Part shown: positions 1 to 42,525 of the stretch, in pieces
How the letters are laid out: each line of letters begins with the position of its first letter
Numbering within the stretch: position 1 is the first letter of the stretch
Origin: Eubacteriales bacterium
GTDB taxonomy: Bacteria; Bacillota; Clostridia; Oscillospirales; UBA644
NCBI GenBank assembly: GCA_045534395.1
Contig: JAZSJP010000111.1
Coordinates: 1 to 42,525 of the forward strand
DNA length: 42,525 nt
Reading direction: 5' to 3'
Program-made: the position numbers and the translations under genes
The notes under the pieces: model-generated
The model's input: the letters and a program-made list of their open reading frames with translations, nothing else
The model's database searches: none
Told to the model about the DNA's origin: nothing

Positions 1-448
1 GACAATACTAATGGCCCACTCCTTGGCTTACAGAACGACATGGCTACGATCCGACTTGCTTTTGACCTTCTTCTTCCGTTATATGAGACCTCTCATTGAA
101 AACGGTCACGTGTATTCCGCCGTTCCCCCTCTGTATAAGATTACCCGAGGGAAAACCGTGCGGGTGGCGTATTCCGACGAAGAACGGGATAGGGTTTCTT
201 CCGAAATGCGGGAAGACAACCCCAACGCAAAAATCGAAATTTCCCGCTTTAAGGGTCTCGGTGAAATGGACGCTCACGAATTGTGGGACACCACCATGGA
301 TCCCGAACAACGTTCTTTGAGACGCATCACCCTGGACGACGCCGTCCGTGCCGACGAAGTGTTCTCGGTACTCATGGGGGAACAGGTGGAACCCCGTAAG
401 GAATGGATTGAGAAAAACGCGCAGTATGCGGTAAATCTTGATTTTTAA
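1..448 (+). CDS. gyrB: DNA gyrase subunit B, C-terminal part (5' end lies outside the window)
   Basis: The frame is open from the window edge. The translation contains PPLYKI and [19 protein letters not shown], typical of the GyrB C-terminal region. gyrA follows directly. Confidence 0.93.
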
Positions 449-465
449 TCAAGATTTACACGCGG

Positions 466-535
466 AAATGCAAAATGCACAATGCACAATGCAAAATTAA
501 AACCATTCCCTCTCCTGTGAGGCGGGGGACGATAC
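466..535. repeat. Family B intergenic repeat, short variant in inverted orientation
   Basis: TGCAAAA-TGCACAA-TGCACAA-TGCAAAA heptad run followed by ...cctgtgaggcggggga. This is the reverse complement of the CCCCGCCTCA... module seen at 30.4 kb and 33.3 kb. Confidence 0.8.
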
Positions 536-606
536 CATTAGAAACATAAAAAACGGGAGAAAGAATCAAAACAGTTTGAATTTTTTCTCCGAAGGAGAAA
601 AGAGTT

Positions 607-3126
607 ATGGCTCATAACAGAAGTTATAATCCTGAGGATATTCGCTTTCCCGACCAGGTGATAACCGAATCCCATTTGGTTGAGGAAATGGAAAAATCCT
701 ATATTGAATACGCCATGTCGGTTATCGTCGGCCGTGCGTTGCCCGACGTTCGGGACGGTCTGAAACCCGTTCACCGCCGTATTTTGTACACCATGTACGA
801 AAGCGGGCTTACTTCGGACAAACCTTTTAAAAAATCCGCCACCTGGGTGGGTGACGTGTTGGGTAAATACCACCCCCACGGCGATACCTCGGTCTACGAC
901 GCCATGGTTCGCTTGGCGCAGGACTTTTCCATGCGCTATATGCTGGTGGACGGTCACGGGAACTTCGGTTCCGTGGACGGAGATCCCCCGGCGGCTTACC
1001 GTTATACGGAAGCGCGCCTTTCCAAAATGTCCAACGAAATGTTGCGGGACATTGATAAAGAAACGGTGAATTGGGATCCCAACTTTGACGAAAGCCGCAA
1101 GGAGCCTCGGGTGTTGCCTTCCCGCTTCCCCAACCTGTTGGTCAACGGTTCTTCGGGGATTGCCGTCGGCATGGCAACCAACATTCCCCCCCACAACCTG
1201 AAGGAAGTCATCAACGCCGCCGTGGCGGTTTTGGACGATCCCGAAATAGAAGTTTTGGATCTGTTGGATTATATTTCGGGGCCCGATTTCCCCACGGGCG
1301 GTATCATTATGGGACGCCGCGGAATCCGTGCCGCTTATGCCACGGGTCGCGGAAAAGTCGTGGTGCGCGCCAAGACGGAATTTGAAGAATTCAACAAAGA
1401 TCGGGTACGTATTATCGTTTCCGAACTTCCCTATCAGGTCAACAAGCGTCAGTTGATTAAATCCATTGCCGATCAAGTTAAGGATAAAAAGATCGACGGC
1501 ATTTCCGACTTGCGGGACGAAACCGACCGCAACGGGATGCGTATGGTCATCGAACTGAAGAAAGACGCCAACCCCCAAGTGGTTCTCAACACACTGTTTA
1601 AGCAGACGGCGTTGCAGTCTTCCTTCGGCGTGATATTGCTGGCGTTAGTGGACGATCAAAAGCAACCCAAGATTTTGTCTCTGAAGCAGATCTTGGAAGA
1701 ATATCTTACCTTCCAAAAGGAAGTCCTGACCCGCAGAACCCAGCACGATTTGAAGAAAGCAAGAGAACGCGCGCATCTCTTGGAAGGTCTCTTGATTGCT
1801 CAAGATAATATCGACGAAGTCATTCGTATTATCCGTACCGCTTACGACGATGCCAAGCAGCGCCTGATGGAACGGTTTAATTTGGACGACGTGCAGGCAC
1901 AAGCCATTTTGGATATGCGCCTGAAGGCTTTGCAGGGACTTGACCGTGAAAAATTGCAGGCGGAATTCGACGAACTGCAACAACGCATCGCCTATTTCTT
2001 GGGGCTGTTGGAAGATCCCGAAAAATTGAAGGCTCTTTTGAGAGACGAATTGTTGGAAATTCGCGATAAATTTGGTGACGATCGTAAGACCGAGATCGTG
2101 GACGTGGAAGATGAAATCGATATTGAAGATTTGATCGAAGAAAAGACCAGCGTCTTTACCATGTCTCACCGCGGTTACATTAAGCGTCAGCCCGAAGACG
2201 TGTACAAGGTTCAGAACCGCGGCGGCAGAGGCATCAACGCCATGTCCACCCGCGAGGAAGATTTCGTGGAAGAGTTGTTTATTGCCTCTACCCACGCCAC
2301 CATTCTCTTCTTTACCACCAAGGGGCGCGTGTTCCGTATTAAGGGATACGAAATTCCCGAGGCTTCCCGTCAGGCGAAGGGGTTGAATATCGTCAACCTG
2401 TTGCAGTTGGATCAGGGAGAAACGGTTTCCGCCATGATTCCTTTGTACGGCGAGATCGACGCAGAACATACCTACCTGAATATGATTACCAAGGCGGGAA
2501 TTACCAAGCGTTCTCTCTTGAGCGAATATAAGAATATCCGTAAGGGCGGTTTGATTGCCGTCAATCTGGACGAAGGCGACGAGTTGGTTTCGGTCAAACT
2601 CACCGACGGTACCAAGAACATTCTCATTATCACCCACAAGGGTATGGGTATCTGCTACGATGAAAATCAGGTTTCCGTGGTAGGCCGTACTGCCCGCGGG
2701 GTTAAGGCAATTAAGTTGGACGGAGGCGACGAAGTCATTTCTTCCATCATTGCCGACGATGAGCAAAAGGTTTTGATCGTTACCGAAAACGGTATGGGCA
2801 AACGTACCGACTTCTCTGAATTCAAGATCCAGCACCGCGGCGGACGGGGTGTACATTGTCACAACGTCACCGAAAAGACCGGACTGATTGCCGGGGCTAA
2901 GGCAGTTACCGAAAACGACGACGTGGTTATCATTTCTTCCGACGGCGTTTTAATTCGCATTCGCACCGAAGACGTTCCCGTATACCGCAGAACTTCCTCG
3001 GGCGTTAAGATCATGCGGGTGGGCGGAGAGACTAAGGTCATGAACATTGCGCCTCTTCCCAAATCGGAAGACGATGATGCCGTGGAAGAAACCGCTGAAG
3101 CAACGGTAGAAGAAACTCAGGAATAA
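607..3126 (+). CDS. gyrA: DNA gyrase subunit A
   Basis: 839 aa. The N-terminal region reads [31 protein letters not shown], with the [10 protein letters not shown] active-site Tyr region. There is a C-terminal beta-pinwheel region and an acidic tail. RBS is gaaggagaaaa. Confidence 0.97.
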
Positions 3127-3152
3127 TAATCCCATACGAGGTAGAATAGGAT

Positions 3153-4556
3153 ATGAAGAACACGGAAAAAACCATGGAAAAAATCGTAAATCTCTGTAAG
3201 AACCGCGGATTTATTTTCGCCGGCTCCGAGATTTACGGCGGACTTGCCAACACTTGGGACTACGGTCCCTTGGGGGTCGAGTTCAAAAACAACGTGAAAA
3301 AAGCGTGGTGGAAAAAATTCGTTCAGGAAAATCGCTATAACGTAGGTCTGGACGCCGCCATTCTTATGAATCCCCAAACTTGGGTGGCATCGGGACACGT
3401 GGGCGGATTTTCCGACCCCCTGATGGACTGTAAGGAATGTAAAGAACGCTTCCGAGCCGACAAGGTCATCGAAGATTGGTGTGCCGAAAACAATTTCGAT
3501 CTGGGCAAGGCGGTAGACGCTATGTCTCAGGCGGAAATGAAGGAATTCGTGGAAGAGCATAATATTGTTTGTCCCACCTGCGGAAAGCACAATTGGACGG
3601 ATATTCGTCAGTTCAACCTTATGTTTAAGACCTTCCAAGGGGTTACGGAAGATGCCAAGAACGTGGTGTATCTCCGTCCCGAAACGGCACAAGGCATCTT
3701 CGTAAACTTCAATAACGTTGCTCGCACCACGCGTCGTAAGTTGCCCTTCGGCGTTTGCCAGGTAGGAAAATCCTTCCGCAACGAAATCACCCCCGGAAAC
3801 TTCACCTTCCGTACCCGGGAATTTGAGCAGATGGAATTGGAATTCTTCTGCAAACCCGGTACCGAATTGGAATGGTTTGCTTATTGGAAGCAATTCTGCA
3901 AGGATTGGCTGTTGTCCTTGGGGATGAAGGAAGAAAATCTCCGCCTTCGCGACCACGATCCCGAAGAGTTGTCTCACTATTCCAACGCAACTACTGACTT
4001 TGAGTTCGTGTTCCCCTTCGGGTGGGGCGAATTGTGGGGCGTGGCTTCCCGTACCAACTTCGACTTGAATGCCCATCAGACCACGTCCGGTCAGGACATG
4101 ACGTATTTTGATCAGGAAGCCGGCGAGCATTATATCCCCTACGTTATCGAGCCTTCCTTGGGTGCCGACCGCGTCGCCTTGGCGTTCTTGGTAGACGCCT
4201 ACGACGAGGAAGTGGTTGACGCCGAGAAGAACGACACCCGTGTGGTGCTGCGTCTCCATCCCGCATTGGCTCCCTACAAAGCCGCCGTTCTGCCTCTGTC
4301 CAAGAAACTTTCGGAAAAGGCGGGCGAGGTCTATGAAATGCTTGCCAAATACTTTAACGTGGATTACGATGAAGCCGGTTCCATCGGCAAACGCTATCGC
4401 CGGGAAGATGAGATCGGAACGCCCTTCTGCATCACCGTGGATTTTGAGACCGAAACCGACGGCTGCGTCACCATTCGTGAACGGGATACCATGGAACAGG
4501 TTCGCCTGCCCATCGACCAAGTGGTTTCCTATTTGAACGAAAAACTGTATTTCTAA
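3153..4556 (+). CDS. glyQS: Glycine--tRNA ligase (single-chain alpha2 type)
   Basis: 467 aa with [37 protein letters not shown] at the N terminus and class II motifs ([25 protein letters not shown]). Confidence 0.95.
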
Positions 4557-10772: not shown

Positions 10773-11645
10773 TTATACTCCTTCTTCGGGAATGAGCCGA
10801 GCGATCAAGTCATTCAGGTCATCCGTGTTGTAAAATTCCAATTCGATTTTGCCCTTTGCTTTGCCTCTGGGAGCGGAAATTTTTACCTTGCGCCCAAAGG
10901 AGCGGGTCATAGACGTTTCCAATTCCGTCAGATAGACGTCCTTTTTCTTGACGGGGCGGGGCGCTTTTTTGCCCAACCTCGCCCGTACCAAGGCTTCGGT
11001 CTCCCGTACCGAAAGATTTTTTTCCGAAACCATCGTTGCAATTTTTAAGACTTCCTCTTCGCTCAATACTTCGCAAAGGGGGAGCAGGGTGCGGGCGTGT
11101 CCCGAGGAGAGATTTCCGCTTAATATCAAGGTTAAAACCTTTTGGGGTAAGGCTAAGATGCGCAGTGCGTTTGCTACGGCGGGACGGGATTTGCCCACCT
11201 TCGCGGCAACCTGTTCTTGGGTCATGGAATACTCGTTCATTAAAACGCGGTATCCTTCCGCTTCTTCCACGACGTTCAGGTCTTCCCGTTGCAGATTTTC
11301 AATCAATCCTAATTCTAAGGCGGAGCGGTCGTCTTCTTCCCGAATGACTACGGGAACTTCTTGCAATCCCGCCATGCGGCAAGCGCGCCAACGGCGTTCT
11401 CCCGAAATGATTTGATAGCGGCCGCCGTCAATGGCGCGAACCACTAAGGGTTGCAGCAGTCCGTTTGCGGCGATGGAATCCGCTAAAACTTGCAACGCTT
11501 CCTTATCAAAGTATTTGCGGGGTTGTTTTTTGTTGGGCTCCACCGCTTGTAAAGAAACGGTTCGAATAGGGCCTTCGGCGACGATATCGTCGGTGGCATT
11601 GTCAAACAACAGTGCGTCCAGACCCTTTCCTAATCCTTTTTTCAT
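10773..11645 (-). CDS. parB: Chromosome partitioning protein ParB/Spo0J
   Basis: Starts MKKGLGKGLDALL. Contains the ParB box GERRWRA and an HTH region. The ATG at 11645 follows aaaggacaacgct. The longer ORF start at 11690 would run across a parS site. Confidence 0.92.
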   Translation of the reverse strand: MKKGLGKGLDALLFDNATDDIVAEGPIRTVSLQAVEPNKKQPRKYFDKEALQVLADSIAANGLLQPLVVRAIDGGRYQIISGERRWRACRMAGLQEVPVVIREEDDRSALELGLIENLQREDLNVVEEAEGYRVLMNEYSMTQEQVAAKVGKSRPAVANALRILALPQKVLTLILSGNLSSGHARTLLPLCEVLSEEEVLKIATMVSEKNLSVRETEALVRARLGKKAPRPVKKKDVYLTELETSMTRSFGRKVKISAPRGKAKGKIELEFYNTDDLNDLIARLIPEEGV

Positions 11646-11660
11646 AGCGTTGTCCTTTCG

Positions 11661-11676
11661 TGTTTCACGTGAAACA
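11661..11676. promoter_or_regulatory. parS centromere-like site
   Basis: TGTTTCACGTGAAACA, a perfect 16-bp palindrome matching the Firmicutes parS consensus TGTTNCACGTGAAACA, located in the parA-parB gap. Confidence 0.9.
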
Positions 11677-11704
11677 TTTCTGTTTTTCATTGTATTTGCA
11701 ATGG

Positions 11705-12481
11705 TTACAGGAATTTCTTTTTCTGATTTTTAATGACTTCCTGTGCCAAGTCCCGGTAGGCAATGGCGCCTTTTGCGTGCTTGTCGTAGTAGTTGATGGG
11801 TTCGCCGTGGCTGGGGGCTTCGCTGATGCGGACGTTTCGGGGAATGACGGTTTTGAAAATCTTTCCCGCAAAATATTTTTTTACTTCCGCAAGAACTTGG
11901 GTCGTCAGATTCAGTCGCCCGTCGTACATGGTAATGAGGATTCCCTCAATGTCTAAGGTGGGGTTGTACAATCGGCGCACCTGACGAATGGTGTTGGTTA
12001 GTTGAGAAAGTCCTTCCAGGGCGTAAAATTCGCATTGAATGGGAATCAGCACCGTGTGGGCACAGACCAAGGCGTTCAGAGTCAGCAATCCCAAAGACGG
12101 CGGACAGTCAATAAGCACGAAAACAAAATCCACGGAAAAAGGCTGATTCAACGCGTTTTTCAAGCATTGCTCCCGCTTTTCCATTTCTACCAATTCTACT
12201 TCGGCGCCTGCGAGATCCATGTTGGAAGGAAGGATCCAAAGGCTCTTGAATTTGGTTTGGGCAACGGCGTCTCCCAACGTTGCATTGCCTACCATTACTT
12301 GATAGAGGGACGCTTTGATCTGTCGCTTGTTGATGCCACAGCCGGAAGTTGCGTTGCCTTGAGGGTCTAAGTCTACCAACAAGACTTTTTTCCCTGCCTC
12401 TGCCAAGCAAGAAGCCAAATTGACGACGCTGGTAGTCTTCCCCACGCCGCCCTTTTGATTTGCTACTGCAATGATCTTCAT
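11705..12481 (-). CDS. parA: Chromosome partitioning ATPase ParA/Soj
   Basis: 258 aa with the deviant Walker A KGGVGKTT, then LLVDLDPQGNATSG. Confidence 0.93.
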   Translation of the reverse strand: MKIIAVANQKGGVGKTTSVVNLASCLAEAGKKVLLVDLDPQGNATSGCGINKRQIKASLYQVMVGNATLGDAVAQTKFKSLWILPSNMDLAGAEVELVEMEKREQCLKNALNQPFSVDFVFVLIDCPPSLGLLTLNALVCAHTVLIPIQCEFYALEGLSQLTNTIRQVRRLYNPTLDIEGILITMYDGRLNLTTQVLAEVKKYFAGKIFKTVIPRNVRISEAPSHGEPINYYDKHAKGAIAYRDLAQEVIKNQKKKFL

Positions 12482-23961: not shown

Positions 23962-24062
23962 TTTTCATACCTCCTTATGGACTCGGCGAAATCGCCTGTA
24001 AGGCCCGCGAATGTTTCGCGAGCAAGGAAACAGCCGACGAACCTTTTCCGTCGGTATCGTAT

Positions 24063-24091
24063 ATTATACCTTATTTAAAAGAAAAAGTCAA
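24063..24091 (-). promoter_or_regulatory. Sigma-70-type promoter of rpsF-ssb-rpsR
   Basis: On the minus strand: TTGACT, 17 nt, TATAAT. This leaves a leader of about 95 nt before rpsF. Confidence 0.6.
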
Positions 24092-24146
24092 GATAGTTCA
24101 AAGAAAGTTCGATTTTCTCGCGATATCTCTAAGGAAGAAATTCTTT

Positions 24147-24806
24147 TTATAGCAATTTAAACTGATTTTTTTTGAATTCAAGGAGCCCTTCGTCACGCAT
24201 TTTGCAAAGCTCCTTTGACATGGCGCTTCGGTCCACCGACAGGAAATCCGCAAGTTGTTGACGGTTGAAAGGAATGGTAAAATTTGAACTGTTCTGTCGC
24301 TTGGCTTCCTCGGAAAAATAGGAGATGAGTTTTTCTCTCGTGGTGCGTTTGGAGATATGCCCCAACTTCTGCACCAACGTCCGATTCTTTTCTGAGATTG
24401 CAAAAAACAGATTTTGCACTACCATAGAATGAAACCTGCAAGCGGCGGAGCAGACGGTAAGGATTTTCTCCACGTCAAAAAAGATAACGGAACTGTCTTC
24501 AACGGCTACCACGTCGTTGAGCAACCCACCGCTTTCGGGCGTTGCGTAGGATTCTCCGAACATTTCGCCTACGGCAATACGGTTGACGATGGTTCGATTT
24601 CCCCAATAATCATCTTGCTGAACGTGAAGTTCGCCCTTCACAAGCACCGTAAGGTAATTCAGACGCTCCCCTTGGTGAAATACGTATACGTCCTTTTGGT
24701 AGGCGTGCAATTTTGCATCAAGACAGGACAACATAGCGCCGATTTCTTCCTCGGCAACCCCTGAAAATAGTTTGGTTCGTTTCAGTATGGGGATATATTT
24801 TTTCAT
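24147..24806 (-). CDS. Crp/Fnr-family transcriptional regulator
   Basis: Starts MKKYIPILKRTKLFSGV. Contains a cNMP-binding-like beta-roll and a C-terminal HTH (QQLADFLSVDRSAMSKELCKMRDEGL). The ORF-track start at 24941 is an upstream extension. Confidence 0.88.
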   Translation of the reverse strand: MKKYIPILKRTKLFSGVAEEEIGAMLSCLDAKLHAYQKDVYVFHQGERLNYLTVLVKGELHVQQDDYWGNRTIVNRIAVGEMFGESYATPESGGLLNDVVAVEDSSVIFFDVEKILTVCSAACRFHSMVVQNLFFAISEKNRTLVQKLGHISKRTTREKLISYFSEEAKRQNSSNFTIPFNRQQLADFLSVDRSAMSKELCKMRDEGLLEFKKNQFKLL

Positions 24807-24900
24807 AAAAATCTCTTTCCGTTGCAAAAACAACCGACTTGTTTCTTTTATTGTACTATAATAAGGGTGTAATGTCAAGAGCCTCGAAAGGAGATTTTCA

Positions 24901-25596
24901 ATGATTCGAAAAATTATCAAAATCGACGAAGAAAAATGCAACGGTTGCGGTGCTTGTGCCGCCGCTTGTCACGAAGGTGCCATCGAAATGGTAAACGGAA
25001 AGGCTCGTCTCACCCGGGAAGATTACTGTGACGGGCTCGGCGATTGTTTGCCCGCCTGCCCCGTGGACGCCATATCCTTTGAGGAGCGGGAAGCTCCTGC
25101 TTATGACGAGGTCGCCGTTCTCGCGTCCAAGTCCAAGAAAAAAGACACCTTGCCTTGCGGGTGCCCCGGGACGCAGTCGGGGTCCATTCAGCGTGAAGAA
25201 CGCTCTTGCTCTGCCGTAAGTACCCACGCAGACAGTCAACTGTCTCAATGGCCTGTTCAGATAAAACTTGTCCCCGTAAACGCTCCCTATTTTAACGAGG
25301 CAAAATTGCTTATCGCGGCGGACTGCACCGCCTACGCATACGGCAATTTCCATAAGGATTTCATTCGCGGCCGAGTCGCCCTGATCGGGTGCCCCAAACT
25401 CGACGAGGGAGACTACGCCGAAAAACTCTCGGCGATTCTCTCCAACAACGATATCAAAAGCGTGACCGTCGTCCGTATGGAAGTCCCTTGCTGCGGCGGA
25501 ATTGAGAACGCCGTCAAGCGCGCCCTTATGGCAAGCAAAAAAATGATTCCTTGGAACGTCGTCACCATCTCCACGGACGGAAGAATCTTGGATTAA
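24901..25596 (+). CDS. 4Fe-4S dicluster ferredoxin-domain protein
   Basis: CNGCGACAAACHEGA and CDGLGDCLPACPVDA cluster motifs at the N terminus. The C-terminal Cys-containing domain is of unknown function. Divergent from the Crp/Fnr gene. Confidence 0.85.
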   Translation: MIRKIIKIDEEKCNGCGACAAACHEGAIEMVNGKARLTREDYCDGLGDCLPACPVDAISFEEREAPAYDEVAVLASKSKKKDTLPCGCPGTQSGSIQREERSCSAVSTHADSQLSQWPVQIKLVPVNAPYFNEAKLLIAADCTAYAYGNFHKDFIRGRVALIGCPKLDEGDYAEKLSAILSNNDIKSVTVVRMEVPCCGGIENAVKRALMASKKMIPWNVVTISTDGRILD

Positions 25597-26465: not shown

Positions 26466-26854
26466 CCTCACCTCCTCAGTTCTATAATATTTTATGTCGT
26501 AACGGTATGGCGCTTAAACCGTTCAACAATGGAAAAAACGTTGATTTTGATTGTTTATTGATGATTTTTAAACAATCGACCCAACGAAAAAATGAAGGAA
26601 TTAGATACGTTGTCTCAGTTGGGCAGTACTATGGTAATGAACTTCCATTCCACGGAGGCAAAATAAAGACGATGGTAAAAAAGTGGGAACATGAAGAATA
26701 AGCAAATTGTATCTCCGAGCAATATTGAGGAAGATGATCAGAAAAATGTTACCAAACTTTTTTTAAGCCAATCTTCCGTTTTGACAAATGTTTGGTCCGA
26801 AAGAGGCGGAAAAGTAAGGGAAAAAGCGGAAAACATTTGTCAAGGTAAAAAATG

Positions 26855-26890
26855 AAAGGCGATAAAATCGTTGATTTCATCGCCTTTTTT
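26855..26890. terminator. Bidirectional terminator hairpin
   Basis: aaaggcgat-(15 nt)-atcgccttt, followed by tttttt on the plus strand and by cattttttt on the minus strand. Confidence 0.7.
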
Positions 26891-26987
26891 GCAGGGGCAC
26901 CAGGGATCGACCTGCTCTGCGGAGCAGGCCGGGGCGCGGCTCTGACAGTCCACCGGACTGTCATTCACTTCCTCGCCCGTTCGATCC
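26891..26987 (-). ncRNA. Unassigned structured RNA candidate whose 3' part resembles the 3' end of tRNA-Trp
   Basis: It lies between two minus-strand terminators. An outer helix (GGAUCGA/UCGAUCC) encloses a 9-bp hairpin (UGACAGUCC-GGU-GGACUGUCA) and a 7-bp hairpin (CCUGCUC-CGCA-GAGCAGG). The last ~25 nt, CAGGUCGAUCCCUGGUGCCCCUGCA, resemble GGGUUCGAUCCCUACGGCCCCUGCCA of the adjacent tRNA-Trp. Confidence 0.3.
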
Positions 26988-26997
26988 AATTTTTCTC

Positions 26998-27036
26998 TAT
27001 AAAGCAAAGAAATGACCTGCAGCGCAGGTCATTCTT
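26998..27036 (-). terminator. Terminator immediately downstream of tRNA-Trp
   Basis: aatgacctgc-agc-gcaggtcatt with extended flanks. On the minus strand it is followed by ttctttgcttt. Confidence 0.7.
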
Positions 27037-27040
27037 TGTT

Positions 27041-27116
27041 TGGCAGGGGCCGTAGGGATCGAACCCAGGACCCGCGGTTTTGGAGACCGCTGCTCTCCCG
27101 GCTGAGCTATACCCCT
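27041..27116 (-). tRNA. trnW: tRNA-Trp (anticodon CCA), 76 nt with encoded CCA end
   Basis: Minus-strand sequence is AGGGGTATAGCTCAGCCGGGAGAGCAGCGGTCTCCAAAACCGCGGGTCCTGGGTTCGATCCCTACGGCCCCTGCCA. It forms a cloverleaf with anticodon loop CU-CCA-AA. I see an A7:G66 and a C49:C65 mismatch. Confidence 0.88.
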
Positions 27117-27269
27117 GTACAGATTCGGTCTCTATTATAACACAAATTTTTGCTTTTTGCAAGAGGGGAATGTGAATTTTTTATTAAATAAACGTATTTT
27201 GAGCTTCTGTAACGATTTTGACTTATTTGTGTGATAATATAAAAAAAATAAAATTGACGGAGGTTCGTT

Positions 27270-28469
27270 ATGCTTCGAGCAGTTTGGTTAGATCAACAGA
27301 AAAAGATGGTGTCGGATCGGGATTTTCGGATCTTGGAAAAGGCATCGGGTATTTTATTGAATAATATAGCCCCCAACGATCCGGGGACGTTGTGGAATCC
27401 TTATCGCGCCATCGTGCCGTCCATGGCACGTCATCACGCGAAGCCGGACAAACTCCAATTTCCCGGGATTTGGAATTGGGACAGCGCATTCCATACCGTG
27501 GCGGTGGCTCGGTTTGACGGCGCTTTGGCGCAGGAACAGATGGAAGCATTTTTCCTGTTCCAAAAGGAAAACGGGTTGCTGCCCGACGTGATTTACATGC
27601 CCGTTGCCGACAACAGAATCATGGACCAATACGGCAAGCCGCCGGTTTGGGCGTGGGCGTTGGAACGGCTCGATCGTGTCTATCCCGACGACGTATTTCT
27701 GAAAAAAATGTATCCGAAATTGGTTCTCAACGAATCTTTTTGGCGCACCGAACGGTATTGCGCCGAGGACGGCTTGTTCTTCTATTCCACCTCGGAACAG
27801 GGCGAAAATCGGGAGAAATATATCCGTTGGGAATCGGGATTGGACGATTCCATTCGCTTTGACGATGACGTCGTTGAATATTTGTATCCCATCGATCTGA
27901 ACTGTTTTATGATTTCCTTCTATAAATCCATGCAGTATTTGGCATTGCGTCAAGGATTGACGGAAGACGCCGCGAAATGGTACGAGCGGGAGCAGGAATT
28001 GACCCGTCGGGTACAGAAAGTCCTTTGGAGCGAGGAAGATCAATGCTTCTGGGATTACAATTTCAAAGAGAAGGACTTCGTGCGGGTGTTGACGCCGGCA
28101 GCATTTATGCCTCTGTGGGTGGGAATTGCCACTCCTCTTCAGGCGGCGGCGCTGGAAAAACTTGCCGCAGATCCCAAAAAACTGTATCCCTGTATGCCCA
28201 CGGTTTCTTTTGATCATCCCAAGTTGGATCCGGTGGGCTATTGGAGAGGTTCCGTTTGGATGAACGTCGCGTATTTTGCCATTAAGGGACTGTACGATTA
28301 CGGGTTCCGTAAAACCTCCATGGAGATTCGCAACACCTTGTTGGATTGGATGGACAAGGGCGATACCATTTATGAAAATTACAATCCCATTACCGGGGAA
28401 GGGAAATGCGGCAGAGACTTCTCTTGGTCTTGCGTTTTCGCTATGGAAATGATTCTGGAGATGAAATAA
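27270..28469 (+). CDS. GH63/trehalase-like (alpha/alpha)6-barrel glycoside hydrolase
   Basis: 399 aa with WNWDSAFH, GKPPVWAWA, ESGLDDSIRFD, GYWRGSVWMNVAYF and ENYNPITGEG, as in MGH1-like/GH63/GH37-type enzymes. Confidence 0.78.
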   Translation: MLRAVWLDQQKKMVSDRDFRILEKASGILLNNIAPNDPGTLWNPYRAIVPSMARHHAKPDKLQFPGIWNWDSAFHTVAVARFDGALAQEQMEAFFLFQKENGLLPDVIYMPVADNRIMDQYGKPPVWAWALERLDRVYPDDVFLKKMYPKLVLNESFWRTERYCAEDGLFFYSTSEQGENREKYIRWESGLDDSIRFDDDVVEYLYPIDLNCFMISFYKSMQYLALRQGLTEDAAKWYEREQELTRRVQKVLWSEEDQCFWDYNFKEKDFVRVLTPAAFMPLWVGIATPLQAAALEKLAADPKKLYPCMPTVSFDHPKLDPVGYWRGSVWMNVAYFAIKGLYDYGFRKTSMEIRNTLLDWMDKGDTIYENYNPITGEGKCGRDFSWSCVFAMEMILEMK

Positions 28470-38382: not shown

Positions 38383-38410
38383 AAAAAAGCCTCCGCAGGG
38401 AGGCTTTTCT
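38383..38410. terminator. Bidirectional terminator
   Basis: aaaaaa-gcctcc-gcag-ggaggc-tttt. Confidence 0.8.
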
Positions 38411-38649
38411 CAAAAGATAATTCTTATGTTTAAAAAGTTGACCATTACGATAATGAGAATCAAGAATCCCCACGCGACGCTTTGGCAGATTGTCGCCGCA
38501 ATGAAGGAGGCTAATTTTTTGCCCCAATTATCACGCCGCTTTGCCGCCGCAATGATGAATTGAATCAAACTGATGATAAACCAAACGTTCAGTCCCACAA
38601 AGATCGACAAAATCATCAGCAAAAACAATAAAAGAAGAATGGATCTCAT
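38410..38649 (-). CDS. Small hydrophobic membrane protein
   Basis: 79 aa. The ATG follows ggggtgattgt. Two to three hydrophobic helices. No family recognised. Confidence 0.45.
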   Translation of the reverse strand: MRSILLLLFLLMILSIFVGLNVWFIISLIQFIIAAAKRRDNWGKKLASFIAATICQSVAWGFLILIIVMVNFLNIRIIF

Positions 38650-38712
38650 ACAATCACCCCACCGTTTTCTTTCATTCTACCACATTCCGCCCCAAATGTC
38701 AAGATTATTTCA

Positions 38713-38741
38713 TTGACAATCCCCTAAAAATCTGTTATAAT
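38713..38741 (+). promoter_or_regulatory. Near-consensus sigma-70 promoter with an extended -10
   Basis: TTGACA (38713-38718), 17-nt spacer ending in TGT, TATAAT (38736-38741). It points toward the tRNA-Pro-like fragment and tRNA-Pro. Confidence 0.65.
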
Positions 38742-38785
38742 AACACCGGACTGTTTCTTGCAAGCCAAGGAAACAAACATATTTC

Positions 38786-38822
38786 GAGGCGCAGCTCCCC
38801 CGGTAGAGCGCCTGGTTTGGGA
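38786..38822 (+). pseudogene. tRNA-Pro-like 5' fragment (D arm to anticodon loop only)
   Basis: GCGC-AGCTCCCCCGGTAGA-GCGC-CTGG-TTTGGGA matches the D arm and the UGG anticodon loop of bacterial tRNA-Pro. There is no acceptor stem, no 3' anticodon-stem strand and no T arm. Confidence 0.4.
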
Positions 38823-39025
38823 GCGTGCCTAGGCGGGGAGCCCCCGCGGGCAAAACGGTGCTTCGCACCAAAAGCAAATCCTTCAAACCCCTTGCAAACA
38901 CGGAAGAAAAGCCTTTAACAGTGCGGACTTTCGGCACTTTGCAAAAACTCTAAAAAGCGTAAAAATCGGGTTTGACTACAGTTTGTCCCACTTCTACGCA
39001 AAAACTTAAAAATTCAATACAAAAT

Positions 39026-39101
39026 CGGGGTGTGGCGCAGTTGATAGCGCGGGTGGTTTGGGACCATCAGGCCGCGGGTTTGAGCCCCGCCACTCCGACC
39101 A
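39026..39101 (+). tRNA. trnP: tRNA-Pro (anticodon UGG), 76 nt with encoded CCA and an atypical elbow
   Basis: CGGGGTG-TG-GCGC-AGTTGATA-GCGC-G-GGTGG-TTTGGGA-CCATC-AGGCC-GCGGG-TTTGAGC-CCCGC-CACTCCG-A-CCA. All four stems pair and G37 is present. The D loop has GA instead of GG, and the T loop has UUU instead of UUC. Confidence 0.86.
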
Positions 39102-39137
39102 AAAGCCTCTGGAATCAAATGATTCCAGAGGCTTTTT
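39102..39137. terminator. Bidirectional terminator between tRNA-Pro and the FRG gene
   Basis: aaagcctctggaatc-aaat-gattccagaggcttt, a 15-bp stem flanked by an A-run and a T-run. Confidence 0.85.
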
Positions 39138-40273
39138 CATTCAAAATCTGTGATCATATTTTCAGGTAGAATTTTAGGATTATCCGACTCTAACCGGGAA
39201 CTTTCTTGTCTCATCAGTAAAATCCTATAACCTTGATCAATCTTTTCATTCGGGAAAAAGTTTTCTTGACTTAATAAGACTCCGTTTCCCAACATTTCTT
39301 TGACTAATGATACACTTATTTGCAAAACGCATGCAATTTTCGAATTAAAATCGTATGAGCATTCTTTCCCTCTTACGATCCAACCATGTTGAGAACATGG
39401 ACGCAAAAAGGTCGAAGGCAATGCCTTTCTAAGATCTATCGTATATGTATTTTCTCCCAAATACACACCATGAATATTAGACGTGTTCGTTTCCGCAACA
39501 TATAAAAACATGTATAAATGCTCCGCATTTATTATTTCGTCAATCTCTTGATTATATTGTTTAATTTTTTTGCATTCAGCTTCCCAACTTCTACATTGTG
39601 CTTCATATTTAGTACGGGTATTCCGTTTAATCAATTCGTCTAGAGTTATACTCCCATGTGAAGCACATTCTTTTAATATTTGAATTTTCTCCTCACTTAA
39701 AACAACACTTTCTAAACAAGGCTTTAGGGGAAACTCTTGTTTTGCAATCCTATCACTTTTTGTTATATAAGGACTAAGTTTTGCTTTTCCTTTATGTTCT
39801 CTGCATTTATATTTTTTCTTTTTTGCATCCCATTCATATAATCCAAACCATAATGCCGTCCAATGATTATCCACAAAATCAACACAGTATGTTTTCGCTC
39901 CATAATGTTGAAAAACCGCTTCTACTATTAGTTTTTCATATAGCTTCCACCCATCAATATCACTATTTCTTAACCCCAAGAATTTTCTAAATGGATCATC
40001 TTCAATGGATGCACTAATCGCATCTTTCAATCGTCCTTCGTGATATTCAATTTCAGACATACAATGCTTAATGCTTGGAATAACGGATTCATACAGCTCA
40101 CATTGTCCCCTATACAACACTGTTCCATTTCCTGCATTAATATGCTTTATATAACCGACAACCTGATTTAATGCGTGCATGCTTGGAATTTCATAAACAG
40201 GAATATCGGTTTCTCCCCATGTCCCTATCATTGGAGATTGTTGAAGATCTGTAGCTTTTGGATACGCAACCAT
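39137..40273 (-). CDS. FRG-domain protein with a ~120-aa internal insertion
   Basis: 378 aa. The ATG follows aaaggagaagtaaa. Motifs are LYRGQ...IPSI, then FQHYGAKTYCVDFVDNHWTALWFGL, then late FLRPCSQHGWIV. These match my recollection of the Pfam FRG pattern (F/Y)RGQ...QHYG.pT..lD.t.....AL.FA...R...Q.G.f. The sequence is AT-rich. Confidence 0.7.
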   Translation of the reverse strand: MVAYPKATDLQQSPMIGTWGETDIPVYEIPSMHALNQVVGYIKHINAGNGTVLYRGQCELYESVIPSIKHCMSEIEYHEGRLKDAISASIEDDPFRKFLGLRNSDIDGWKLYEKLIVEAVFQHYGAKTYCVDFVDNHWTALWFGLYEWDAKKKKYKCREHKGKAKLSPYITKSDRIAKQEFPLKPCLESVVLSEEKIQILKECASHGSITLDELIKRNTRTKYEAQCRSWEAECKKIKQYNQEIDEIINAEHLYMFLYVAETNTSNIHGVYLGENTYTIDLRKALPSTFLRPCSQHGWIVRGKECSYDFNSKIACVLQISVSLVKEMLGNGVLLSQENFFPNEKIDQGYRILLMRQESSRLESDNPKILPENMITDFE

Positions 40274-40346
40274 TTTACTTCTCCTTTTATTTTAATTTGC
40301 CTTTCTTTGTTTACTGCGAGTCAAATTTGTTATCGGTTTTAACGCA

Positions 40347-41114
40347 TCAGTCTTTCTCCCATCTATTTGCATCTGTCCATCGAAATCTCGGAGTTGTCTC
40401 CTTTCTGTCGCACCCCGAATAACAACCGTCTCTTCCCCAAATATTACACACTTCGTGAGTTTTTCCATCAATAGGATATACTGCATGATGAATACATCCT
40501 TGACAGTATTCTGTTTCTATTATTCCGTCTACATTATTGTGAAATGTATCCACAACTGCTTCTCCTTCCTTATTGTCGTCTGCATCAGAGAGAGGCGTAT
40601 AGTCTGTGATTTCATCACTGTCATTTGCTTGAGCCGCCAGATATGCAACGCCAGCTACAGCAGCCACCGCTCCTACAACCTTGCCTGCTGTTATGAGCCA
40701 TTGCTTTGCTTTTTCAAGACGAGCTTGTCTGCAATCCGCACAAAGAGTCGCATCTGGGTTAGGTAGCACCTTTCCACAGTCTGAGCAAACACCTTTTATA
40801 TTGTTGAACGTGGTATCGTTCTCATATCCACAATTACGACAAATGTGTTTTACTGATTTTTTATTAAAACCTTCTTGGTTGTTGAGGTAAGCTTCACACT
40901 CATCGCAAAACCAAAAGACACAGTCGTTCAGAAAATACTGTTCAGAAAAATGATAACCACAATCCTCGCAAGTCCACAACGACTTCTTTTTATTGAAGGT
41001 CATTTTACCGTTTTTACAGGCAGGGCAGAACATCCACTTCTTAATTTTTCGGATATACGCATAGGTGAGAGTCTCAACTATATTCTTATGTGTTTTGGTT
41101 TTCACTTTCTTCAT
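40347..41114 (-). CDS. Membrane protein with three N-terminal zinc ribbons, one TM helix and a Cys/His-rich C-terminal domain
   Basis: The ATG at 41114 lies 8 nt after gaaggagg. CxxC pairs are CPAC...CEDC, CDEC...CRNC and CSDC...CADC. The TM helix is ITAGKVVGAVAAVAGVAYLAAQA. An acidic linker leads to CQGCIHH...C...C...C. Confidence 0.8.
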   Translation of the reverse strand: MKKVKTKTHKNIVETLTYAYIRKIKKWMFCPACKNGKMTFNKKKSLWTCEDCGYHFSEQYFLNDCVFWFCDECEAYLNNQEGFNKKSVKHICRNCGYENDTTFNNIKGVCSDCGKVLPNPDATLCADCRQARLEKAKQWLITAGKVVGAVAAVAGVAYLAAQANDSDEITDYTPLSDADDNKEGEAVVDTFHNNVDGIIETEYCQGCIHHAVYPIDGKTHEVCNIWGRDGCYSGCDRKETTPRFRWTDANRWEKD

Positions 41115-41478
41115 CGACTGCGCCTCCTTCATTGCTACTGTCAGTTAACTCTTCGCTAAAAGCAGTATATATTTTTTCGCCCATCTCATCGTGGGCTTTT
41201 TTCTCAGAGATTTTCTTTTTGACAAATTTTACCCCTTTCGGGACAAGGCACAAAACGCCACATACGCCAAGAGTGATGACACTACCTTTTGCTAAACCAA
41301 TTTTTTTACCCTTAGCAAGACCCGTCTTTTCACCTTCGGTCAACGCGTAGTTAAAAATGTTTTTTACGCCTTCTAACATATTTCCATCTCCGATGGATTT
41401 AAGAGGCTTTGTTACATCAGGTGCTGCTGCGGATGCTGTTTTCAGCAGTTCTCCAATTTGATTTCCCTTGTTACTCAT
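41086..41478 (-). CDS. Small single-pass membrane protein with an acidic C-terminal tail
   Basis: 130 aa. The ATG follows ggaggacaaaga and overlaps the upstream stop (ATGA). The TM helix is SVITLGVCGVLCLVP. No family recognised. Confidence 0.7.
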   Translation of the reverse strand: MSNKGNQIGELLKTASAAAPDVTKPLKSIGDGNMLEGVKNIFNYALTEGEKTGLAKGKKIGLAKGSVITLGVCGVLCLVPKGVKFVKKKISEKKAHDEMGEKIYTAFSEELTDSSNEGGAVDEESENQNT

Positions 41479-41924
41479 TCTTTGTCCTCCATTTCAACAG
41501 ACAGACTATCAATCAGTCTTTGGAACTCGGTGATTTGTAACTGGTCGGCTTCAATCTGCTTTTGAAGCTGGCGAATGGTATCTTCCTTAGCTTTGATGAA
41601 TTCATTGTGCTTTTTGATTTCACTGCGAAGGAACTTGATGATATCAGTATCGGAAATGCGTGCTTTCTTCAACTGTTCAACATCGATAATTTTTTGAGCT
41701 ATCAAACCTCCGATCATCGCTGTTGAAATTAGTGCCGTACTCGCTATCGATGCATATTTTGGAGACGATTTCAAAAAAGTATGGAGAGCAGACTCATATA
41801 CTATATGACCTCCTTTTTTTGACTCAATTGTAGCTTCCAGTTTCTTATCACGGATCCATCTACGAACTGTTTCCGGATTCGTGTTAAGCAGATCTGCAAT
41901 TTCTTTTACACTGTACGTTTTCAA
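41475..41924 (-). CDS. Excisionase/MerR-type HTH protein fused to a hydrophobic segment and a coiled coil
   Basis: 149 aa with a TTG start after ggcggtgaag. YSVKEIADLLNTNPETVRRWIRDKKLEA...GGHIVYESALHTFL resembles the HTH_17 pattern. Then come the segment IASTALISTAMIGGLIA and a heptad-rich tail. Confidence 0.75.
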   Translation of the reverse strand: MKTYSVKEIADLLNTNPETVRRWIRDKKLEATIESKKGGHIVYESALHTFLKSSPKYASIASTALISTAMIGGLIAQKIIDVEQLKKARISDTDIIKFLRSEIKKHNEFIKAKEDTIRQLQKQIEADQLQITEFQRLIDSLSVEMEDKE

Positions 41925-41947
41925 AACTTCACCGCCTTTGCACCCTA

Positions 41948-41976
41948 ATTATACCACACTTCCGCTCAATTGTCAA
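41948..41976 (-). promoter_or_regulatory. Near-consensus sigma-70 promoter with an extended -10, driving the four-gene cassette
   Basis: On the minus strand: TTGACA, 17 nt ending in TGG, TATAAT. It lies about 25 nt upstream of the TTG start at 41924. Confidence 0.65.
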
Positions 41977-42010
41977 TACATTTGTAGTATTAATTCGATT
42001 TAATGCCACA

Positions 42011-42041
42011 AAAGAGGGCGCCTTAATCGGCGCCCTCTTTT
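42011..42041. terminator. Bidirectional terminator at the right edge of the AT-rich cassette
   Basis: aaagagggcgcc-ttaatc-ggcgccctctttt. Confidence 0.7.
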
Positions 42042-42259
42042 CGTTTTGCTTTCTCTTCCGCAATCTCCGCTTTGACTCTTTCGATCATCTCGGCGAGTTT
42101 GATTTCGCACTGTTCTTTCGTTTCGGCGTAGACGTTGAACTTCTTTCGCTTGCCGTTCGGCAGTGTTGGGAAGAAGCGGTCATCACAGACGTTGCCATTG
42201 ATCTGATTCCGGCAATCCGTATCTCATCCTTCATCCATACCGGCTTTTCTTATATCCAT
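42023..42259 (-). pseudogene. Remnant of a site-specific integrase N terminus (arm-type DNA-binding region), interrupted and truncated
   Basis: The minus-strand frame reads MDIRKAGMDEG*DTDCRNQINGNVCDDRFFPTLPNGKRKKFNVYAETKEQCEIKLAEMIERVKAEIAEEKAKRKEGAD*. The PNGKRKKFNVYAETKEQCEIKLAEMI stretch resembles the N-terminal arm-binding segment of tyrosine integrases. It carries an in-frame TGA and no catalytic domain follows. Confidence 0.4.
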
Positions 42260-42261
42260 AT

Positions 42262-42525
42262 TTATTTGCAGTCTTTACAAGAGTATTCGGGGACGGTGCG
42301 CTCGTTGATGACCGATTCATAGAGCCGCCAACCGCCTGCCAGGTTATAGCAGTCGTAGCCGTTGCCTATGAGAATACGGCAAGCAAGGTAGGAACGAAGT
42401 CCCGAATGGCAATGAACGTAGATAGGCCTGTCTTTCGGAATTTCATTTATTCTTTGGCGCAGGGAGTCCAGCGGAATGTTGACAAAGCCGTCAATCTTGC
42501 CCTGCATCACCTCAAACGGTGTACG
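42262..42525 (-). CDS. Rhodanese-domain C-terminal end of a larger protein (5' end outside window), e.g. CoA-disulfide reductase/NADH oxidase type
   Basis: The frame is open to the window edge. FVNIPLDSLRQRINEIPKDRPIYVHCHSGLRSYLACRIL contains the rhodanese active-site loop CHSGLRS. Confidence 0.8.
   Translation of the reverse strand, partial: RTPFEVMQGKIDGFVNIPLDSLRQRINEIPKDRPIYVHCHSGLRSYLACRILIGNGYDCYNLAGGWRLYESVINERTVPEYSCKDCK

Follow-up and report, generated by a model that had tools for sequence, protein, structure and literature searches.

The stretch of DNA analysed here, hereafter the window, is the 42,525-nucleotide contig JAZSJP010000111.1 of the Eubacteriales bacterium assembly GCA_045534395.1 (Clostridia; Oscillospirales; UBA644). 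Between positions 39102 and 42041, beside an intact tRNA-Pro gene, it carries an AT-rich islet of four minus-strand genes, here ORF1 to ORF4, the last of which codes for an FRG-domain protein. An initial annotation had seen in this islet a self-contained four-gene cassette. Comparison with related loci indicates instead that the four genes are not an obligate unit, and the explanation that we favour, with moderate confidence, is that they are the decayed end of a tRNA-Pro defence island, a mosaic of two independently moving modules. The region would be a fossil, the end next to the tRNA of an integrative defence island from gut Clostridia, in which ORF1, ORF2 and ORF3 would make up one module, an accessory triad of mobile elements, and ORF4 the other, a cassette consisting of FRG alone with a conserved leader (~55 nt) of its own. 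ORF4 itself is a new, insertion-bearing member of FRG, an already known family of predicted conflict enzymes.

The association of the genes was assessed in an FRG-anchored genome scan (25 loci) and in a metagenome scan anchored on ORF3, the zinc-ribbon gene (51 loci, of which the 30 with at least 1.6 kb downstream were used for counts). A zinc-ribbon gene was found upstream of FRG in only three of the 25 FRG-anchored loci (L003, L004 and L006); all four genes were together in L003 alone, and 22 loci had neither the zinc-ribbon gene nor the triad. Starting from the zinc-ribbon gene, FRG was found downstream in 4/30 loci, one of them with a truncated copy, and the other neighbours were AbiEi/AbiEii with a methyltransferase, McrBC, serine recombinases and mobile-element replication genes. 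The full ORF1-2-3 triad, with 57-87% identity, is found at the ends of IMG/VR prophages that have no FRG; in one of them (L083) it adjoins two serine integrases, an endolysin and a minor tail protein. FRG, for its part, is the sole gene between a tRNA-Leu and serine recombinases in L016 and between a tRNA-Arg and a tyrosine integrase in L019, in L017 and L023 its direct neighbour is a serine recombinase, and in Klebsiella plasmids it is the lone annotated gene between the plasmid partition genes and a convergent antitoxin gene. Even among islands related to that of the window, no FRG accompanies the zinc-ribbon gene, the 86-aa ORF and the tRNA-Pro of L031, and in L027 and L028 FRG is truncated at the 5' end, with only its 3' third preserved.

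The mosaic structure is also apparent in the comparison with the closest relative, L003, which comes from a different metagenome-assembled genome. The segment with ORF2 and ORF3 (41536-40337, ~1.2 kb; 1200-2400 in L003) has 96-100% DNA identity, and the proteins are 100% (ORF3) and 98% (ORF2) identical. The integrase remnant and ORF1 have 67-85% DNA identity, and FRG 51-84% at the DNA and 58% at the protein level, the L003 FRG instead sharing 83% identity with the allele found in the other island variant (see below). At the level of sequence comparison this indicates a recent recombination or transfer of the ORF2 plus ORF3 segment alone. Furthermore, FRG loci with different upstream genes become alignable ~55 nt 5' of the FRG start, at a TTGAC motif, and G+C content at third codon positions is 0.26 in FRG, 0.35-0.38 in ORF1-3 and 0.56 in one flanking host gene. 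The discordant identities, the breakpoint in the leader and this difference in third positions all indicate that FRG with its leader is one exchangeable cassette and ORF2-ORF3 another unit.

As a whole, the islet departs clearly from its surroundings, with a G+C content of 0.380 against 0.495 ± 0.013 (minimum 0.464) in 358 windows of the same size elsewhere, i.e. ~9 standard deviations under the remainder of the window, so that a sliding calculation bears out the AT-richness noted initially. ORF1 (41475-41924, 149 aa, TTG start) codes for an HTH_17 protein, ORF2 (41086-41478, 130 aa) for a predicted small single-pass membrane protein, ORF3 (40347-41114) for a predicted single-pass membrane protein with a triple zinc ribbon, and ORF4 (39137-40273, G+C 0.345) for the 378-aa FRG-domain protein. 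Their coordinates confirm the layout first described, four minus-strand ORFs with an ATGA overlap between ORF1 and ORF2 (41475-41478, tcat on the plus strand) and a 73-nt gap between ORF3 and ORF4 (40274-40346, the 5' leader of FRG). The 29-nt overlap given for ORF2 and ORF3 holds when ORF3 is read from the ATG at 41114 and grows to 47 nt from the first ATG, at 41132, from which the protein counts 261 aa; the ATG at 41114, which has an AAGGAGG 8 nt upstream, is the likely start.

The near-consensus extended -10 promoter proposed upstream of ORF1 turned out to be a perfect one (41976..41948, minus strand; TTGACA-17-TATAAT with TG, 12/12). Since promoter-like sites are no more frequent across the region (9) than expected from shuffled sequence (8.6), only such perfect matches were considered meaningful. 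The terminators predicted at both ends are likewise perfect hairpins. The one at 39101-39136 has a 17-bp stem flanked by A and T runs and is common to tRNA-Pro and the FRG gene, and that at 42010-42041, with a 13-bp stem, serves as terminator of the integrase remnant and contains the stop codon of this gene in its loop. All four genes are probably transcribed from the one strong promoter upstream of ORF1, which is not in itself evidence for a four-part machine. An exact-sequence look-up of the FRG, zinc-ribbon and MATE efflux proteins of the window gave no record.

The assignment of ORF4 to FRG is clear. The Pfam family (PF08867) matches aa 52-148 with 31.6 bits (cut-off 25), most ORF4 homologues carry this domain, and ORF4 keeps the (Y/F)-R-G-Q motif and the QHYG…T…DFVDN block. 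In 32 aligned sequences R55, G56, Q122, H123, Y124, G125, T128 and D132 are invariant, and the invariant polar residues include R55, E118, Q122, H123, Y124, T128, D132, D135, N136, D280, R282, R291 and Q295. The relatives of ORF4 (486 at 50% clustering, E up to 1e-3) are mostly proteins of 280-330 aa that match it in two blocks, indicating that ORF4 carries an insertion of ~100 aa (~160-250) that splits the core into two conserved parts (~aa 14-157 and 250-355). In the AlphaFold2 model (pLDDT 91.3) this insertion appears mostly helical, with a long helix at 211-249. ORF4 belongs in this respect to a small insertion-bearing subgroup, most relatives being without it. The insertion-free cores of P0100-P0119 are fused to a C-terminal YunG domain (PF24585), and some of these proteins add an N-terminal DUF1016_N. 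No signal or transmembrane segment was found in ORF4, nor any hydrophobic 19-mer with a Kyte-Doolittle value of at least 1.6. An FRG protein with 99% identity is present in another sample (P0001).

FRG had initially been taken as a family without assigned function. The Aravind group has in fact classified Frg as a clade of the ADP-ribosyltransferase (ART) superfamily and predicts that it acts as an NADase or antiviral effector (PMC9503650, citing Burroughs & Aravind 2020). R55, S67 and E118 of ORF4 are conserved and are candidate counterparts of the ART catalytic triad (R-S-E or H-Y-E). Neither does the locus lack any match to a named system, as had been thought, since nine PDC-S15 profiles of PADLOC match ORF4, the best with E=2.5e-8, and two weaker matches span aa 31-261. 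PDC systems were identified because they lie within BREX, DISARM or type I restriction-modification loci (bioRxiv 10.1101/2024.01.29.577857). ORF4 resembles PDC-S15 as a single-gene candidate of FRG type but differs in its location, a tRNA site in gut Clostridia that is not embedded in BREX, DISARM or restriction-modification loci. Closer to the defining embedding is the chromosome of Faecalibacterium prausnitzii UT1 (L017, 4439-11239), where two different FRG-domain genes flank a type I HsdR, followed by a serine recombinase.

Several results weigh against the reading of an independent FRG cassette with an enzymatic defence role. As to its independence, there is one tRNA-Pro island lineage in which FRG is repeatedly accompanied by the zinc-ribbon gene. 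This holds for both of its variants (A and B), one comprising the window and L003 and the other L004, L006, L029, L034, L052 and L078, so that within this lineage there may be a functional link between the two genes. No terminator is predicted between ORF3 and FRG (40274-40346), and in the window the internal promoter of the FRG leader has a poor -10 region (GGCAAA or GCAAAT), so that FRG is probably dependent on the ORF1 promoter for its expression, the TTGACT of the leader being a possible weak internal promoter. These features, together with the tight operon, its single perfect promoter and the variable C-terminal domain of the zinc-ribbon protein, which would suit a sensor, are what one would find if the four genes formed one dedicated defence system, with ORF1-3 as a membrane sensor or regulator complex and FRG as its effector, as had been hypothesised initially. 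We consider this very unlikely. Both surveys gave low co-occurrence (3/25 and 4/30), prophages that lack FRG have the triad intact, minimal islets carry FRG as their only cargo and plasmids carry it alone, the L031 island has no FRG, and the segments of the window are discordant in identity and composition. Furthermore, the genes between the regulator and FRG change from one variant to the other, ORF2 in one and ORFs of 82 and 86 aa in the other. A membrane sensor coupled to an FRG effector thus found no comparative support in the locus surveys.

As to the enzymatic and antiviral role, the role that we give to the triad (see below) is a guess, no FRG protein has been tested and no member has a shown enzymatic activity as far as we found in the literature, and the 145 PDC systems are candidates, described as untested in bioRxiv 10.1101/2024.01.29.577857. 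The best PDC-S15 match covers only the FRG-domain part (aa 34-150 against profile positions 44-152 of 276). The full-length ORF4 model had no match below E=0.5 in the PDB or BFVD; Foldseek gave only spurious coiled-coil matches against the PDB, e.g. the tower domain of LSD1, and only non-significant uncharacterised viral proteins in BFVD (E of at least 0.59), and the FRG profile had no match among PDB sequences even at E up to 10. Following this lack of a meaningful fold match, a natural insertion-free relative, P0113, was modelled (pLDDT 92.9). Its top two PDB fold matches are both ADP-ribosyltransferases, the TreTu toxin (8s2n_B; probability 0.75, TM 0.58 on the target) and pierisin-1 (5h6j_A), at weak values (Foldseek E ~0.4). 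These matches are consistent with the ART assignment in the literature, without being proof of it.

The favoured reading of FRG as a defence cassette draws on its genomic contexts, which make the initial suggestion of a conflict or defence gene plausible for this part of the islet. Relatives of ORF4 are found near Thoeris, type I restriction-modification and AbiEii genes, on an island that has Hachiman genes as well, and next to recombinases; in L007 FRG is directly adjacent to ThsA/ThsB of Thoeris, and in L011 an AbiEii gene is ~4.5 kb away. FRG would be an enzyme of the ART superfamily, as the literature and the weak fold signal suggest, and would be latent in the uninfected cell; upon infection it would use up NAD+ or modify a target by ADP-ribosylation and so abort phage growth. 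By analogy, this logic of a latent enzyme triggered by infection would be the same as that of the NAD+-depleting abortive-infection effectors (SIR2, TIR), a likeness that extends to the proximity to Thoeris in L007, although the FRG fold is different. With respect to the Frg clade of the ART superfamily, ORF4 is similar in its score above the Pfam threshold, its motifs, its mobile and defence contexts and the weak fold matches of the insertion-free relative. It differs by the ~100-aa helical insertion, in place of which other close relatives bear the C-terminal YunG domain.

A different possibility is that FRG is not directed against phages and is either a toxin-like or competition gene serving the mobile element, e.g. 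through the killing of cells from which the element is lost or through action on rival elements, or a modifier of a host target for regulation. FRG is indeed always on or beside mobile DNA (recombinases, tRNA sites, and conjugative Klebsiella plasmids, where it sits among maintenance genes), the highest-probability Foldseek match is an interbacterial Rhs ADP-ribosyltransferase toxin, and no relative was found in the phage collections searched, IMG/VR by two conserved peptide patterns and INPHARED by tblastn. We regard it as unlikely all the same, because there is no conserved adjacent antitoxin or immunity gene, the surroundings are not those of a secreted or Rhs/polymorphic toxin, the protein has neither a signal nor a transmembrane segment, and the neighbours are mostly anti-phage systems. 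As a predicted class of NAD+-linked conflict enzymes, FRG proteins have in this locus a compact, intact and natively promoted representative from a gut Clostridium, for which natural comparators exist in the form of islands with FRG, with a truncated FRG and without it.

The domains first recognised in the islet, an excisionase/MerR-type HTH, three zinc ribbons and FRG, were all recovered, and so was the hydrophobic helix attributed to three of the four products: ORF1, ORF2 and ORF3 have one hydrophobic 19-mer each by the Kyte-Doolittle scale (at least 1.6). In ORF1 the HTH (HTH_17 E=6e-11; TIGR01764, excisionase-family DNA-binding domain, 31.1 bits with a cut-off of 28.8) is followed by the hydrophobic segment (1.68) and by a C-terminal region of ~70 aa, which is probably a coiled coil, judging from weak Pfam matches. 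ORF1 was considered as the excisionase of the island and rejected as default. With 149 aa, a hydrophobic segment and a long C-terminal tail it is not a small soluble excisionase, and in L078 there is a separate 69-aa HTH_17 gene upstream of the integrases, so ORF1 probably does not have this function. Weak PADLOC matches of ORF1 to mad1 and of ORF3 to PDC-S64 (E=3e-4) were taken as generic HTH and zinc-ribbon similarity, respectively.

ORF2, which has no family match, is inherited together with the zinc-ribbon gene. Models for ORF2, ORF3 or FRG are absent from NCBIfam, and PHROGs gave nothing useful for ORF2-4. The three CxxC...CxxC zinc ribbons of ORF3 match Pfam families below threshold only. 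Its family comprises 293 clusters and is called "hypothetical" in every source that names it. The triple-ribbon region (~150 aa) and the hydrophobic segment are highly conserved, followed by an acidic linker and by at least four unrelated C-terminal modules. The zinc ribbons of ORF3 are predicted to face the cytoplasm and to be followed by a single membrane span and the variable C-terminal domain. The gene 5' of the zinc-ribbon gene is usually a small ORF, and in the loci inspected (L026, L033, L037 and L053) it codes for a short protein with a hydrophobic stretch, of varying family. The zinc-ribbon protein was not found in INPHARED or in PLSDB plasmids. An abundant, unannotated three-gene membrane module is flagged in this way in Clostridial prophages and islands.

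Gram-positive prophages encode membrane proteins expressed in the lysogen beside their integrases, e.g. the lactococcal superinfection-exclusion protein Sie2009. Encoded next to integrases, under a strong promoter and with products predicted at the membrane, ORF1-3 may likewise be expressed in the lysogen in an accessory role, and our guess is a membrane module that is exclusion-like or regulatory. The likeness to Sie2009-type proteins (small membrane proteins, integrase-side position and a strong, constitutive-looking promoter) is purely one of analogy, and those proteins have no counterpart of the ORF3 triple zinc ribbon or of the HTH partner. The triad may also be a general element-borne module that controls or licenses the adjacent defence cargo, FRG here and AbiE, McrBC or restriction-modification elsewhere, in which case sensing would fall to the outer, variable domain of the zinc-ribbon protein.

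On the right flank, the initial annotation had placed a decayed N-terminal fragment of an integrase. The gene is indeed a decayed integrase, but what is left of it is the C-terminal tail. The remnant (42023-42223, minus strand, ~66 codons) has a product that reads …NGKRKKFNVYAETKEQCEIKLAEMIERVKAEIAEEKAKRKEGAD up to the stop codon and resembles the N-terminal arm-binding region of integrases. In alignment, nevertheless, it corresponds to the final residues of a 486-aa tyrosine integrase of L006 (2638-4098; Phage_integrase and Phage_int_SAM_3), whose N-terminal and catalytic domains lie upstream of the part matched by the window. In the sister islands L006, L027, L052 and L078 the order is two intact tyrosine integrases, MerR, the zinc-ribbon gene, a small ORF, FRG and tRNA-Pro. 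The second of the tandem integrases is a protein of 483-486 aa (also L027 3577-5037 and L078 6459-7910) with a C-terminal extension of ~100 aa that resembles the N-terminal arm-binding region, which is why the remnant looked N-terminal. By alignment, the window keeps only the 3' end of the gene and the catalytic part is deleted, the deletion junction abutting the 3' end of a rhodanese-type ORF at 42262. With the integrase, intact in L006, L027 and L078, reduced here to ~66 C-terminal codons, the island is no longer mobile. The adjacent tRNA-Pro, the atypical composition and the decayed integrase agree with the earlier view of a foreign islet linked to a tRNA. In L078, inserted beside uvrB-uvrA, a Hachiman-type pair (HamA and a DEAD/ResIII helicase, 1-3477; also in L079 and L080) is located upstream of the integrases.

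The extent of this decay raises the possibility that the islet is junk whose genes merely persist, without current function, since the integrase was lost. The integrase is down to 66 codons, FRG is truncated or lost in sister islands, and the tRNA 5'-half remnant of the window (see below) is itself decayed. Against this, none of the four ORFs is disrupted, their ribosome-binding sites, terminators and perfect promoter are in place, the 100% and 98% protein identities of ORF3 and ORF2 to L003 imply recent exchange or constraint, and the 99%-identical FRG exists in another sample. We find it quite improbable, and the favoured picture of a decayed island end that still carries intact modules is retained.

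The left edge had been set exactly at the 3' end of tRNA-Pro. This is doubtful, and the true edge is probably elsewhere, because homology between the window and the sister islands passes through the intact tRNA-Pro (39026-39101, plus strand, anticodon TGG; ARAGORN, Rfam tRNA 57.8 bits) and ~120 nt upstream, reaching 38906, towards a decayed tRNA-Pro 5' half at ~38786-38826 (plus strand). This remnant, a direct repeat of the intact tRNA that ends in the anticodon loop/stem (…GGTAGAGCGCCTGGTTTGGGAGC), is the probable old insertion junction. The spacer between both (38827-39025, plus strand) is conserved in sister islands from 38906 to 39025, and an Rfam search of the leader (38745-39025) found nothing. 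Facing the remnant there is another perfect sigma-70-type promoter (38713-38741, plus strand; TTGACA-17-TATAAT with TG, 12/12), the probable original host promoter of tRNA-Pro.

Similar tRNA-Pro 5'-half remnants align in L003, L004, L006, L015, L027, L029, L034 and L052, and the layout of promoter plus remnant is like that of the window in L003 and L078. L078 has two homologous units of ~150-nt spacer plus tRNA 5' half in tandem ahead of the intact tRNA (11140-11920). Tandem pairs of such units are also seen in L027 (7500-7900) and L029 (3800-4060), the homologous spacers of the three loci being ~150-190 nt long. Neither the window nor any of the fetched loci showed a copy of the tRNA-Pro 3' half. 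Flanking direct repeats with the tRNA 3' part were not found in the window, nor were att-type direct repeats at the integrase-distal boundary of L027 and L052 within the fetched DNA, beyond which these islands extend. In the usual pattern of tRNA islands a 3' fragment of the tRNA is found at the far end of the island. The window is like such tRNA-targeted islands in its adjacent tRNA, atypical G+C, tyrosine integrase remnant and defence cargo; its family differs in that tRNA 5' halves precede an intact tRNA, and this tRNA co-varies with the island.

In the simplest reading, islands of this family would carry a tRNA-Pro of their own and integrate within the anticodon loop of the resident one, leaving one unit of spacer plus tRNA 5' half at every insertion. 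We know of no earlier description of such an integration footprint, which may reflect a non-standard integration mode. That at least one of these two ideas is true, the licensing of neighbouring cargo by the triad or the insertion of an island-borne tRNA-Pro into the anticodon loop, we rate as improbable. None of the findings presented here overturns current views.

Back-to-back with the promoter at 38713-38741 there is an 11/12 promoter on the minus strand (38702..38674) facing a hydrophobic ORF of 79 aa without family match (38410-38649). Elsewhere in the window two further low-G+C patches (0.43) are found at 24001-25000 and 26501-27500, the latter around a tRNA-Trp (27041-27116).

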